DNA of 29,228 nucleotides from a virus (lineage: Duplodnaviria > Heunggongvirae > Uroviricota > Caudoviricetes), in IMG/VR virus record IMGVR_UViG_2778261380_000007, positions 1 through 29,228 of that record, one strand, 5' to 3'. Shown here piece after piece: positions 3,442 through 6,707 of the stretch. Position 1 is the first letter of the stretch; each line of letters begins with the position of its first letter. Below the pieces are notes generated by a model that had not been told where the DNA came from, ran no database searches, and was given only the letters and a program-made list of their open reading frames with translations. The position numbers were made by a program, and so were the translations under genes.

Positions 3442-3496
3442 TTAATTTGCTCCAGATACAAGGAATGGCCGCAGTGATGCATTATTAACCAAAAAA

Positions 3497-3515
3497 TACG
3501 ACCACCGTGGTCTTA
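3497..3515. promoter_or_regulatory. Mnt-operator-like palindrome TACGACCAC-C-GTGGTCTTA (core GACCAC-C-GTGGTC, 3500-3512)
   Basis: Seen directly: perfect 6-bp arms around a central C. It resembles the P22 mnt operator (AGGTCCAC-G-GTGGACCT as I recall it) with one change per half-site, and sits between the divergent tailspike and mnt genes. Confidence 0.6.
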
Positions 3516-3544
3516 TTGAGGATGCAACCAGCAGATAATAAGAT
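3516..3544 (+). promoter_or_regulatory. Candidate mnt promoter (-35 TTGAGG 3516-3521, 17-bp spacer, -10 TAAGAT 3539-3544)
   Basis: Hexamers read by eye, abutting the operator palindrome and ~30 bp upstream of the mnt start. Weak match to consensus. Confidence 0.3.
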
Positions 3545-3576
3545 GCCGATCCACTCACAAGAGCGAGGCATCAAGA

Positions 3577-3828
3577 ATGGGAAGAGATGACCCGCAATTT
3601 AATCTGCGGCTACCTTACGAATTAAAGGAAAAACTAAAACAGCGAGCCAAATCCAATGGCCGCTCTCTTAATTCAGAATTAGTTCAGATAGTGACTGATG
3701 CTGTATCAAAGCCATCCAAAATTTCAGGCTATCGAGACGATGCGGAACGCATCGCTGATGAGCAGTCCGAACTTGTTAAGAAGATGGTGTTTGATACGCT
3801 GAAGGATTTGTACAAAAAACCCACCTGA
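3577..3828 (+). CDS. mnt: Mnt-like ribbon-helix-helix repressor (Arc/MetJ family) with an Arc-type recognition beta-strand
   Basis: 83-aa ORF, near-identical in length and in its C-terminal two-thirds to P22 Mnt (...NGRSLNSELVQIV...YRDDAERIADEQSELVKKMVFDTLKDLYKK). N-terminal strand is PQFNLRLP (Arc-like) rather than Mnt PHFNFRMP. GAGG RBS upstream. Confidence 0.9.
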   Translation: MGRDDPQFNLRLPYELKEKLKQRAKSNGRSLNSELVQIVTDAVSKPSKISGYRDDAERIADEQSELVKKMVFDTLKDLYKKPT

Positions 3829-3927
3829 AGGTGAGTTAATTTTTGCATTTACCTGGGCCATATTGACTACTTATAAAATGAGATCAATATTTAATCGCCC
3901 AATAATGGGTGTATGTTGAGGTATATC

Positions 3928-4107
3928 ATGGCGAAAAAACCAGGTGAAAACACAGGAAAAAACGGCGGAATATACCAAGAAGTTGGCCCGCGCGGAGGTA
4001 AGAAAGACAATTTTGCCACCGTCAAGGACAACGAAAGGCTTCCGCCAACAACAAAGCCAGGTCATGGCTGGGTATTAGATAAGCGAACTCCAGACAGCAA
4101 AAAGTAA
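3928..4107 (+). CDS. Small conserved hypothetical protein (YjzC-like pattern, 59 aa)
   Basis: ATG at 3928 preceded by GAGG with 6-nt spacing (the ORF-track start at 3913 is probably too early); same strand as and 100 bp downstream of mnt; followed by a terminator. Motif KKPGENTGKNGGIYQEVGPRGG...HGW resembles YjzC-like small proteins (from memory, low certainty). Confidence 0.6.
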   Translation: MAKKPGENTGKNGGIYQEVGPRGGKKDNFATVKDNERLPPTTKPGHGWVLDKRTPDSKK

Positions 4108-4113
4108 TAATCA

Positions 4114-4135
4114 AGCCGGGTCACTCCGGCTTTTT
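4114..4135 (+). terminator. Rho-independent terminator of the mnt / small-ORF transcript
   Basis: Stem AGCCGG (4114-4119), loop GTCACT, stem CCGGCT (4126-4131), then TTTT (4132-4135), immediately after the 3928-4107 stop codon. Confidence 0.75.
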
Positions 4136-4486
4136 GATATGTCGCTCGCAGAACTCAACAAGCCTGCTCATTAAGTAGCAGTAAGTCTCGTTGGCTCTTC
4201 CTGGTTCAACATCAACGCCTACCCTTGAGCAGATATCGAATGCCATGTGAGCGCACTCATGGGCAATAGTAGATAGTTTGCCATTGAACACACCTATCAC
4301 ATGCAAAACACCATTCTCGCTGCTCATTGTATGAGACGCTCCGTTGGCATCCGAGTCCTGCACGTCCACGCCAAGTTTTTGATGCAGGCGTTGCCATTCT
4401 GGAAAGTCTCTGCAAAACACAATCGTACCGCTCTCAAAGAGCGGAACGAGCATCTTTGGTACGTTTCCAATGTTAACTTTTTTCAT
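4121..4486 (-). CDS. Small HEXXH protein, possibly a minimal ImmA/IrrE-like zinc metallopeptidase (121 aa)
   Basis: ORF with ATG at 4484-4486 and an AGGA RBS. Contains AHECAH followed ~20-25 aa later by acidic residues (VEPGRANE) and several Cys. Sense orientation relative to late transcription reading through from gene 16. Family assignment is inference. Confidence 0.5.
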   Translation of the reverse strand: MKKVNIGNVPKMLVPLFESGTIVFCRDFPEWQRLHQKLGVDVQDSDANGASHTMSSENGVLHVIGVFNGKLSTIAHECAHMAFDICSRVGVDVEPGRANETYCYLMSRLVEFCERHIKKPE

Positions 4487-4516
4487 GGTATCCTGCGCAA
4501 AACTAAGGAGGTTGGT

Positions 4517-4846
4517 GTGTTAGAAATAGTCGTACTCGCTCTTGGGATATCCTGTTGCGTACTATATGCAGGGTTAGCTGCCCTCAAGAAACAGGTTAAG
4601 GAATTAGATCGCTCACATGAAATTGATACAAAAATTGCGCGATTAACAGAAGAGAATAAACACTTAAAAAATTCCATAAGGGCACTAACTGATGACAACT
4701 ACAAACTGTCCCATGCATTGGCTAAGTGGGAAATAGTAAGTTATGAAAGAATGACCGACATGATTTTTTCGTCTTATATGGCTACAAAATCTCCTGAAAC
4801 ATCAGGAAAAGCAATAATTGCAGCCATTGAAAAGAGAATTAAATAG
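4517..4846 (+). CDS. Membrane-anchored coiled-coil protein (109 aa), AT-rich accessory gene; candidate superinfection-exclusion-type moron
   Basis: GTG start at 4517 preceded by a strong AAGGAGG RBS (4505-4511); the ORF-track start at 4301 is probably spurious upstream extension. N-terminal hydrophobic segment LEIVVLALGISCCVLYAGLAAL, then K/E-rich heptad-like sequence. Low GC. Occupies the position sieA has in P22. Confidence 0.5.
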   Translation: MLEIVVLALGISCCVLYAGLAALKKQVKELDRSHEIDTKIARLTEENKHLKNSIRALTDDNYKLSHALAKWEIVSYERMTDMIFSSYMATKSPETSGKAIIAAIEKRIK

Positions 4847-4865
4847 CCTTCCTTGGCGTTCATTT

Positions 4866-6707
4866 CTACTGCCTAGTAGCTTCGTTAGTTAGGAGAGGGC
4901 GAACGGCGTTAGCAGCCTGATTTAACGCTCGCTCATATGCCGGAGTTCCAGGCTTGACGTTTGCAAGGCGGAGAAGCATGTTTCTTGCTGCTTTAGACTC
5001 ATACAAACGCATCATTGCACCAAAGCCAGCCTCAAGCCCCATTGATACGCCAAGAGTCGCAGTTGCGCCAATCGTCCTTATCCGGTTGGCTTGCGATTGC
5101 CCCGTCTGAGTTACTACATTTGCGGTGTCTGACCTTGCTGTTTGCTGTAGAACTTCATGAAGAGAATCAAGCTCTTTCATGTGCTTTCCAGAAAAAATAG
5201 TGTTGTAAATTTCACCGCCTGACTGAGATTTCAGCTTATTAACTTCAGTGATGAACTTGGCTGGAGAGTCACCGGCCTTTTCCGCTATTTTGCTGACGTA
5301 AGCTGCACGCATAGCATCTTTCCCTTTATCATCCAATGCGCTCCAGATTCGTTTCACGTCAGATGGTTTTCTGCTTAATACAACAGTATTTATAAGTTCA
5401 GGACTGGCTTCACTGCTTGCCTTGTTGAGCTTGTTAGCAATGTTTTTATTAAGCACCTTATTATAAACGTTTGCATAATCGGAATTTGCTTTAAGGTATT
5501 TTGCTGCGTCTGACGCACCGAGGTTTTTTGCAACTGCGTTACGAAGGTCTTTTGACATTGCATTCTCTACCATATTGGTAGCTGCTTTTGCCTGGTTGGG
5601 GAAGACCATAGCATCTCCCTGAACATTAGATCTAAATGCTGTTCTGTGCTGACGCAAGAGATCAAACGTAACATCCAAATCAGTTGCAGGGTTTGCTAAT
5701 TCTTCACGCAGGTTACGCAAGGATGTAAGCAGGCTTTGATTGGCTGAAGTCCCAAGCCGTTCCTGTCTTGCGATCGCTGTATTCAGAGCATTCATGGTAT
5801 TTGTAGTATCAACTGCGGCATTACCCATTTTATTGGTGACGTCATTGATAACAGCGCCAGCAGCATCCTTCCGCCCCCTTAACGTGGTGGTCAGAGATTT
5901 CACCACATCATCAGGGTTGTACTCACCAAAACGGTCAAAATAATTGCTTACCAGCTTACTACGCGTTGCATATTGCTCTGCTCGCTTTGAGCCCGTCCCG
6001 AGCAAAGCCCCCTCGGCATCCTGAGTAAGGCCGCGAGTGAAAGCATTTTTCGGCGGGATAACATCAGATGTCATTGGTGTCACGCCCATCGATTCTGATG
6101 TGGCAATTTTCTTCGCCACTTCTGGCGCAATATCACCTTTTATAGCCGTTATTCCACGCCCTATTCCCTTTGCTGCTGCGGAAAGAACACCCTGAGCGGC
6201 AAGGTTAACTCCGGCATTTTTAGCTGCATTTTGTGCGAAATCGCCTTTCTGATTTGCGGCCTCTGCCAGCGATCCAATAGCCATGCTTCCTGCCGTTCCA
6301 ACTCCTGGAACTAAATACCCACCAATTGTTTCACCGGCTTGTGCGTATGGGTCTGTCGGTTTATCTACTGGACGATAAACATCATCCAAAACTTTTGGCC
6401 CACCAAGCCCCTGACTGATTGCATTAATCAGACTTGCGCCACCCTGCAATACGTCAAATGGTACGTTTACCAGACCACGACCAGCCTGTTCTGCAATTTG
6501 CCCTGCACTTTGACCACCAGTGAGCCAATCGCCAGCTTGTTGCATCAATGATGGTTCTTCCCGTGTTGGTGCATTATTGTCCTGATTAACTGTTTGTTGC
6601 TGAACAGCCTGACCAGCAAAATACTCATCAATGGCGGTGCCAATATCTTCGGTGCTCGTACCATCAGGAAAGGTAAATGTCTTACCGTTTGCAGTTACTT
6701 TCATCAT
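4866..6707 (-). CDS. Ejection (DNA transfer) protein, P22 gp16 homolog
   Basis: 613-aa ORF, N-terminus [30 protein letters not shown]; position and size as P22 gene 16; start overlaps the gp20 stop (ATGA). Confidence 0.85.

Follow-up and report, generated by a model that had tools for sequence, protein, structure and literature searches.

What do two short, divergent genes do at the point where phage P22 carries sieA, and do they belong to one another? The question is raised by positions 4121–4865 of a 29,228-nucleotide viral sequence (IMG/VR record IMGVR_UViG_2778261380_000007; this whole stretch is called the window below), which comes from the late, right-end portion of a P22-like (Lederbergvirus-type) prophage of E. 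coli. One open reading frame (ORF) encodes a 121-amino acid (aa) HEXXH protein identical to HkcC of phage HK620, and the other, on the opposite strand and convergent on the ejection protein gene 16, encodes a 109-aa membrane protein. The initial annotation of this DNA proposed that the two form a single module, in which a membrane effector expressed in lysogeny is opposed by a late-expressed counter-factor. We give somewhat better than even credence to a different arrangement, in which two independent accessory units abut within the 'ant moron', the insert between genes 16 and 9. One would be an ORF-precise cassette holding the 109-aa gene and the other a mobile pair made up of hkcC and orf59a. 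That hkcC is a named gene and that the region is a hyper-variable moron is already known.

A swappable cassette beside gene 16

The cassette, its junctions and the gene that lies head-to-head with it are arranged as follows.

4121–4486, − strand: hkcC, encoding the 121-aa HEXXH protein from an ATG start, co-oriented with late genes 16 and 9 (tblastn identity, phrog_1365)
4456–4486, + strand: equivalent of the P22 sieA promoter PsieA, within hkcC codons 1–10 (P22-pbi annotation mapped by alignment)
4487–4516: intergenic spacer with both ribosome-binding sites and conserved left junction of the cassette (junction pattern in at least 120 IMG/VR contigs)
4491–4494 (complement), − strand: ribosome-binding site of hkcC, AGGA, 4 nt before the ATG
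4505–4512, + strand: ribosome-binding site of the 109-aa gene, AAGGAGGT, 4 nt before the GTG
4517–4846, + strand: 109-aa cassette gene in the sieA slot, with GTG start at 4517 (PHROG 8100)
4847–4865: spacer to the gene 16 stop, without a terminator; right junction of the cassette, where P22 similarity restarts

Alignment of the window with P22, HK620, ST160 and E. coli CFSAN004176 defines the borders of the cassette. The sequences are identical through the GTG (TTTTTTCATGGTATCCTGCnnAAAACTAAGGAGGTTGGTGTG) and unrelated from the second codon, and similarity restarts directly after the cassette stop and runs on into the 3′ end of gene 16. The exchanged segment begins exactly at the shared GTG and ends immediately beyond the stop codon, and the PsieA and ribosome-binding region of P22 is retained. 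An extended −10-like TGGTATCCT at 4486–4494 is probably a part of the promoter that is kept even where hkcC has been replaced.

A scan of IMG/VR for the junction yielded at least 120 contigs, and 125 junction loci were translated from the shared GTG; counts given for the slot below refer to these loci as listed. They hold at least 12 ORF families with no BLAST link to one another, all beginning at the same GTG. The 109-aa family is present in 25 copies, a 129-aa protein (phrog_2651, with a signal-peptide-like N-terminus) in 23, HkcB in 18 and SieA in 12, and the remaining cassettes encode products of 62, 140, 75, 106, 116, 149, 99 and 68 aa. The cargos include hydrophobic proteins of 62, 75 and 116 aa and a soluble protein of 140 aa, and by eye most of the 12 families start with or hold a long hydrophobic stretch. 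With the exception of SieA, the families (11 of 12) have no known function in PHROGs. We propose that recombination in the short conserved flanks swaps at least 12 unrelated cargo ORFs, mostly predicted membrane or secreted proteins, into a unit that would use the promoter region, Shine–Dalgarno sequence and GTG of P22 sieA and HK620 hkcB.

The cassette and hkcC do not travel together. Ten of the 12 cassette families have an intact hkcC upstream, but among the 25 copies of the 109-aa cassette only eight do. In CFSAN004176 the 109-aa gene adjoins a lipoprotein gene instead of an intact hkcC: this 139-aa lipoprotein gene (MKRIIGVVAGAILLSGC...; locus L007, 3993–4412) replaces hkcC and orf59a, and the hkcC remnant consists of the first five or six codons (MKKVNI...). 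hkcC is also absent beside the two distant homologues of the 109-aa gene, from Klebsiella quasipneumoniae (128 aa) and a metagenome (131 aa). As hkcC and the 109-aa cassette assort independently, they are two genes rather than one module, and their head-to-head position is an accident of adjacency. The initial annotation had also required overlapping promoters at the divergent starts. The only documented promoter is the PsieA equivalent, within the first hkcC codons, and hkcC needs none of its own; we propose that it is transcribed with the late operon. Late transcription runs through the moron to tailspike gene 9 (PMC2629481), in keeping with the late orientation that had been assigned to the 121-aa gene. 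Since the cassette promoter lies within the 5′ coding region of hkcC, late transcription is antisense through the cassette. The late strand also has a terminator-like hairpin, TTTCCTGATGTTTCAGGAGA with TTTTGT behind it, at 4790–4809 (−), within the 109-aa ORF and 57 nt downstream of the gene 16 stop, and it could attenuate read-through to hkcC and the tailspike gene.

At the level of sequence the initial description was reproduced in full. ORF calls and a hairpin scan returned the same ORF coordinates, the 30 bp (4487–4516) between the two start codons and the 19 bp (4847–4865) from the 109-aa stop to the gene 16 stop, a gap in which a terminator-like hairpin is absent. The strong ribosome-binding site of the 109-aa gene is confirmed, as is its AT-rich, foreign composition (37.0% GC and 31.8% GC at third codon positions, against 47.3% GC for hkcC and 48.3% for the window). 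Both ORFs are genuine genes under purifying selection rather than chance ORFs. A longer 181-aa ORF from an ATG at 4301 was considered in place of the 109-aa ORF and rejected, given that 72 codons at its start run antisense to hkcC, which is under strong selection, and that the ribosome-binding site and GTG at 4505–4519 are conserved.

In agreement with the anchor and coil noted at the outset, the 109-aa protein has a single membrane anchor, a coiled coil and a conserved domain at the C-terminus. Its match to phrog_8100 covers residues 2–109 of 109 (E = 1.4e-69), and the copy of the gene in CFSAN004176 (RefSeq WP_000890120.1) has 99.5% DNA identity. Residues 4–22 form the sole hydrophobic segment (mean Kyte–Doolittle value 2.43, against 0.22 for the next-best window of the protein). 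AlphaFold predicts one helix over residues 2–90, a loop at SPETSG and a second helix over residues 97–108, a model that conveys no fold information. Residues 20–70 give weak leucine-zipper-type matches, and the family profile retrieves generic leucine zippers alone from the PDB. Because there is no K or R before the helix and four such residues in the 15 after it, the positive-inside rule would place the coil and C-terminal domain in the cytoplasm; the Klebsiella homologue and both types of HkcB share this charge pattern. We therefore picture a protein expressed from the prophage, as SieA is, that would be anchored in the inner membrane with its coil and C-terminal domain probably facing the cytoplasm. 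A Rz-like spanin identity (phrog_739, E = 0.015) was rejected as coiled-coil noise for a gene that lies on the prophage strand behind PsieA.

Selection is concentrated at the C-terminus. The C-terminal domain reads KWEIxSYExMTDMIFxSYMATxSPETSG..IIAAIE.R, and across the family the last 45 residues are almost invariant while anchor and stalk vary. The ratio of nonsynonymous to synonymous differences per site (pN/pS) is 0.09–0.18 over the C-terminal 43 codons, compared with 0.6–0.7 in the transmembrane and coil half. As the low C-terminal ratio persists against homologues with near-saturated synonymous sites (pS 0.69–0.76), selection acts on the protein. Homologues as distant as 50% identity retain the ORF, and at 50–65% its architecture is unchanged. 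The family is tiny, with 14 clusters in an index of 5.8 billion proteins; an exhaustive scan of 1.84 billion retrieved five representatives at E<1e-10. It is found essentially only beside gene 16 of P22-like prophages. Its distant Klebsiella and metagenome members are both directly convergent on gene 16 of such a prophage. A tblastn search with the protein returned 13 Salmonella phage records alone, and no P22 record. The gene is unannotated in the reference records of ST160 (locus L002, 3127–3456) and SE1 (NC_011802, 38479–38805), and RefSeq and some phage records annotate it as hypothetical. E. coli chromosomes hold DNA that is 99.5% identical over 4487–4900, and at least 80% of that stretch is found in 17 of 5,426 complete genomes.

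hkcC, orf59a and the surrounding prophage

On its other side, hkcC faces orf59a.

3863–3891: promoter-like site TTGACT-17-AATATT upstream of orf59a
3913–4107, + strand: orf59a/hkcD-like gene for a small basic protein, 59 aa from ATG 3928, weakly YjzC-like
4113–4132: hairpin AAGCCGGGTCACTCCGGCTT common to the convergent hkcC and orf59a, with a T-run on the + strand only

The conserved partner of hkcC is orf59a, convergent with it and on the side away from the cassette. Among the junction loci with enough flank, 32 carry both hkcC and orf59a, 81 carry neither, six carry hkcC only and none carries orf59a only. In five more distant contexts, where hkcC is 56–63% identical, a convergent gene of 59–75 aa lies 12–17 bp past hkcC in all five, and its product is 74–81% identical to the Orf59a of the window. 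In three of these contexts the pair sits between the genes for tail tube and tape measure in siphovirus-type prophages; in a fourth it is close to a tail-assembly gene of the YdaY family, and in the fifth it adjoins antirepressor and Arc-family genes. The pairs in tail clusters come from Rosenbergiella, Klebsiella oxytoca and metagenomic contigs (the distant loci are L135, 4001–4556, and L136, L137, L138 and L139). The Rosenbergiella pair likewise has a hairpin between its genes, conserved in kind, and the TTGACT-17-AATATT site recurs upstream of orf59a. None of the distant contexts examined is the gene 16–gene 9 slot of a P22-like prophage, and none has such a cassette. From this co-occurrence and these distant contexts, it follows that the mobile unit is orf59a/hkcC (window 3913–4486). 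It is a convergent pair, orf59a on the + strand and hkcC on the −, that has one hairpin terminator in common and also occurs in siphovirus-type tail-gene clusters. The hairpin AAGCCGGGTCACTCCGGCTT is t-mnt of P22 and the 'bidirectional terminator tORF59A' of HK620. Synteny hints that Orf59a may be a partner or substrate of HkcC, although we regard this as rather improbable. At one distant locus (L138, 1–1712), hkcC/orf59a adjoins a gene pair encoding GmrSD_N and HEPN proteins together with Arc/Ant/antirepressor genes, and the region looks like a defence and anti-repressor island of a prophage.

P22 itself carries hkcC–orf59a. By tblastn, the 121-aa protein matches HkcC of HK620 (NP_112089) with 100% identity along all 121 aa, and an ORF 100% identical to it, mostly unannotated, is present in P22 and dozens of P22 relatives. 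The order in P22-pbi is mnt, orf59a, t-mnt, a 366-bp unannotated stretch, PsieA, sieA and gene 16. Newer P22 records annotate a hypothetical protein exactly in the 366-bp stretch, and the reference records NC_002371 and AF527608 have no hkcC annotation. As hkcC adjoins sieA in P22, it does not occupy the sieA slot; the initial placement of the pair in that slot holds for the 109-aa gene and fails for hkcC. The epsilon34 genome paper (PMC2629481) places hkcC and 59a of P22 in the 'ant moron' and gives their function as unknown. The suggestion that the locus might be a switch tied to the neighbouring Mnt finds little to build on: orf59a lies between hkcC and mnt, and no repressor is present near hkcC relatives in four tail-gene-cluster contexts and in late operons. 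Arc-family genes occur near hkcC in two other contexts.

On the strength of its sequence, HkcC is a small, strongly constrained, phage-specific HEXXH+E protein. Variable sites fall 2/3/24 by codon position, with a pN/pS of 0.02 across 24 distinct alleles. The family (phrog_1365, E = 1.4e-39 over residues 1–121) comprises at least 370 clusters, nearly all of 110–135 aa and chiefly from Enterobacterales prophages. A second subfamily at 38–40% identity includes ST64T Orf-129, epsilon34 gp70 and mEp021_49 and is sited between lysis and terminase genes, again in late-operon orientation. The AHECAH motif first noted in the 121-aa protein (H76-E77-C78-A79-H80) belongs to a set of residues that is invariant in 56 homologues, namely L16, F17, G49, F67, T73, H76, E77, C78, H80, F83, C86, G90, N99, E100 and C103; conserved cysteines are C25, C78, C86 and C103, and N99 directly precedes E100. 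The distance of 20 residues from H80 to E100 is invariant in these 56 sequences, down to 33% identity, and matches gluzincin spacing. Gluzincins have HExxH followed by a glutamate about 20 residues past the second histidine, as in thermolysin (H146 to E166).

The AlphaFold model of HkcC is confident (predicted local distance difference test score 89.7, predicted template modelling score 0.85). It has strands at 11–13, 21–25, 49–56 and 59–66 and helices at 28–37, 71–88 (bearing HExxH) and 100–116. A minimal zincin is expected to run strands, HExxH helix, later helix, and the predicted order of HkcC agrees with this, without superposition. The model resembles 28 predicted structures of very diverse phage proteins at E≤0.001, from Pseudomonas, Ralstonia, Erwinia, Eggerthella and Achromobacter phages and the uncultured phage cr130_1, some of them labelled SprT-like; just above that threshold are a Metalloprotease-labelled protein (E = 1.5e-3) and proteins of crAss-like and Acinetobacter phages. 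No solved structure matched, and the zincin fold is not recognisable against solved structures. SprT-like (PF10263) matches in 25 of the 56 members reach 11.6–15.5 bits, below the 25.6-bit cut-off, and cover the HExxH helix alone. In SprT/Spartan proteins the third zinc ligand is a conserved histidine after HExxH. HkcC has no conserved third histidine, its invariant histidines being H76 and H80 alone, and the conserved downstream residue is E100. The initial suggestion of an ImmA/IrrE-like peptidase was rejected: Peptidase_M78 (PF06114) is unmatched at E≤5 in 56 of 56 members, and IrrE-labelled phage proteins match poorly in structure (template modelling score 0.28–0.40). Remote-homology searches and structure prediction, proposed at the outset for both proteins, gave a confident model and sub-threshold SprT-like matches for HkcC, and for the 109-aa protein the long helix and generic leucine-zipper matches described above.

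We infer from sequence and model together that HkcC may work in the cytoplasm, during lytic growth, as a zinc metallopeptidase-like enzyme. It could instead be no peptidase at all but a small binding protein, such as an inhibitor of a host factor, in which HExxH and the four conserved cysteines form a metal site with a structural or regulatory role. This we think unlikely, given the invariance of H, E, H and a glutamate exactly 20 residues past the second histidine, and given a predicted order of strands, HExxH helix and a helix from E100 that fits the minimal zincin architecture. The initial annotation could match neither protein confidently to a characterised family, and by Pfam, NCBIfam, PADLOC and PHROG scans neither belongs to one; the Pfam, NCBIfam and PADLOC scans of the two proteins gave sub-threshold noise (lantibiotic; DivIC/bZIP/ZapB; LmuB coiled coil). 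No functional study turned up in literature searches on hkcB/hkcC, orf59a/YjzC and SprT-like proteins of phages. A second hkcC paralogue, as in ST160/SE1, was looked for in the window and not found.

The surrounding part of the window contains the following genes.

1–1158: integrase ORF, annotated intS at the homologous locus of E. coli CFSAN004176
1267–3441, − strand: tailspike gene with the P22 head-binding N-terminus
3577–3828, + strand: mnt, with Pfam Arc and Repressor_Mnt matches
4866–6707, − strand: gene 16 (ejection protein), convergent with the 109-aa cassette gene

Positions 3442–4865 are a further variant of the hyper-variable 'ant moron'; ten types of moron have been distinguished among sixteen genomes of P22-like phages (PMC2629481). 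Here mnt is kept and arc, ant and sar are absent, and only 135 bp (3442–3576) lie between mnt and the start of the tailspike gene, as in ST160 and SE1. Because arc, ant and sar are absent, Mnt is deprived of its known target, the ant promoter. An Rfam scan of the full window matched no family.

Competing explanations and what they would mean

Given its position and promoter, it is possible, if short of an even chance, that the 109-aa protein is a superinfection exclusion or defence factor acting at DNA entry via its conserved C-terminal domain, by analogy with SieA. In P22, gene 16 is a genetic target of SieA exclusion; SieA blocks DNA injection, and phages escape it by mutations in C-terminal parts of gp16 and gp20 (PMC10883804). 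Several points weigh against such a role. The 109-aa protein has no SieA similarity (hhalign probability 0.3%) and a different topology, with one helix rather than several, so the case for exclusion is confined to position, promoter and architecture. Its orientation in the membrane in turn derives from the positive-inside rule alone. As 11 of the 12 cassettes are uncharacterised, equating the slot with exclusion generalises from a single case, and the figures for the slot are copy counts rather than independent events in an IMG/VR sample rich in near-identical prophages. No defence model was matched, PADLOC giving only a spurious LmuB coiled-coil match.

The same architecture, that of bitopic coiled-coil membrane proteins, could equally serve a lysogenic-conversion factor that docks on an inner-membrane complex of the host, such as an FtsB/FtsL/DivIC-type divisome or a signalling or transport assembly. 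Morons often carry host-fitness genes (PMC2629481), and there are weak sub-threshold Pfam matches to DivIC (E = 0.0037), ZapB and bZIP. These matches are, however, generic coiled-coil similarity well below gathering scores, the family is confined beside ejection-protein genes of P22-like prophages, and of the occupants of the slot the single one that has been characterised is an exclusion protein (PMC10883804), all of which makes a conversion factor improbable. Fainter still is the prospect that the active product is an RNA, a PsieA-type transcript reading antisense into the 3′ end of gene 16 through the 19-bp gap that lacks a terminator. BTP1 STnc6030 sets a precedent for antisense exclusion (PMC7067206), but an ORF retained at 50–65% identity with a C-terminal pN/pS of 0.09–0.18 at a pS of 0.69–0.76 argues for a protein product, and an antisense effect would be at most an additional property common to all cassettes. 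Least credible of all, to our minds, is the original proposal of one module, a lysogenic 109-aa effector with a late HEXXH counter-factor or protease switch. Starts 30 bp apart on opposite strands, a cassette promoter within hkcC, orientations that fit lysogenic versus late expression and the same layout in ST160/SE1-type phages speak for it. Against it stand the occurrence of hkcC with 10 of 12 mutually unrelated cassette families and with only 8 of 25 copies of the 109-aa cassette, the lipoprotein gene beside the cassette in CFSAN004176 and distant 109-aa homologues without hkcC; in the distant contexts examined, hkcC is always with orf59a, outside the gene 16–gene 9 slot of P22-like prophages and without such a cassette.

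Under the two-unit arrangement we would extend the argument in two directions, and that at least one of them is right is a tentative suggestion to which we give clearly less than even weight. The 109-aa protein may represent a new, structurally distinct class of exclusion protein, a single-pass and probably C-terminus-in coiled-coil dimer whose 45-residue tip would block the gp16/gp20/gp7 DNA conduit at the cytoplasmic face. More widely, the fixed PsieA–GTG junction would then be a plug-in site for a dozen unrelated envelope-defence proteins. Alternatively or in addition, a late mini-metalloprotease HkcC may remove the small basic Orf59a, expressed from the prophage, on the switch to lytic growth, which would keep the effector and counter-factor idea with a corrected partner. 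If the 109-aa protein does exclude phages, it would be a second, unrelated protein aimed at the DNA-delivery step that SieA targets, and the shared junction would offer a list of roughly a dozen prophage genes of E. coli and Salmonella as candidates for envelope defence. The hkcC–orf59a pair is present in P22, among the best-studied of phages, yet hkcC is unannotated in the reference P22 records.

Relation to known systems

The closest known counterpart of the locus is hkcB-hkcC-hkcD of HK620 (NC_002730; genome record of 2001), with gene order and orientation identical to the window: gene 16, hkcB (109 aa, with the same GTG and ribosome-binding site), the divergent hkcC (121 aa), a bidirectional terminator and the orf59a-like hkcD. 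By the initial annotation, a match to a well-characterised sieA- or hkc-type set of known function would have refuted its proposal. That outcome is half realised: the pair of the window does match an hkc-type set, named in 2001, but one with no known function. HkcB is like the 109-aa protein in occupying the same slot, in size (about 107–109 aa) and in having an N-terminal transmembrane helix, a coiled coil and a conserved C-terminus. Its C-terminal domain is, however, unrelated, and BLASTP finds no similarity between the two proteins. Two methods point to a weak resemblance in a juxtamembrane coil motif, KIxxLxxENxxLKNSI (hhalign probability 49% over 36 coil columns; phrog_5962, E = 0.011), and a remote homology of their N-terminal halves is possible.

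P22 sieA and the 109-aa gene are alike in locus, in promoter, ribosome-binding site and GTG, in being convergent on gene 16 and in encoding a membrane protein. SieA, with 164 aa, spans the membrane several times and carries the motif FxRYPxEAxxFNK on the cytoplasmic side, in contrast to the one anchor helix and coil of the 109-aa protein, and that motif is absent from the 109-aa family alignment. sieA with 85 bp of upstream DNA suffices for expression and for exclusion of P22-like phages (PMC10883804); exclusion is thus demonstrated for SieA, whereas the 109-aa protein is known here from its sequence. HkcC resembles SprT-like (PF10263, clan Peptidase_MA) and ImmA/IrrE (PF06114) proteins in carrying HExxH on a long helix after strands, and some of its homologues are labelled 'SprT-like family protein' or 'Metalloprotease' in databases. 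It differs in scoring below the SprT-like cut-off of 25.6 bits, in lacking the third histidine of SprT proteins and in having neither an M78 match nor a repressor partner.

Exclusion by prophage BTP1 comes from a transcript that runs antisense to its gene 16 homologue at the 3′ end, where the escape single nucleotide polymorphisms also fall (PMC7067206). Like the cassette of the window, this RNA, STnc6030, which gives self-exclusion, belongs to the prophage strand and converges on the gene 16 homologue. BTP1 differs in having no ant moron, its gene 16 and tailspike gene being just 155 bp apart, and STnc6030 is described as non-coding, while the window carries an ORF under selection. In that 155-bp gap, within the published STnc6030 region, we observe a 23-aa hydrophobic ORF, MERDLLNFVFLIFGLVVGKLLFA, convergent on gene 16 (locus L132, 14011–14082, −), with GGAGG 4 nt upstream and TATAAT further upstream. 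The STnc6030 escape polymorphisms are non-synonymous changes in the gp16 C-terminus, like the SieA escapes, and the BTP1 effector might be a small membrane peptide instead of an RNA.

The insert of the window is the same hyper-variable 'ant moron', between genes 16 and 9 and with hkcC and 59a, that was described previously (PMC2629481). The exact GTG and stop junctions, the 12 alternative cargos and the occurrence of hkcC–orf59a outside P22-like phages are not described in the published work examined, and are new relative to it. Our findings refine the map of a known hyper-variable moron; they do not overturn current understanding or introduce a new kind of system.

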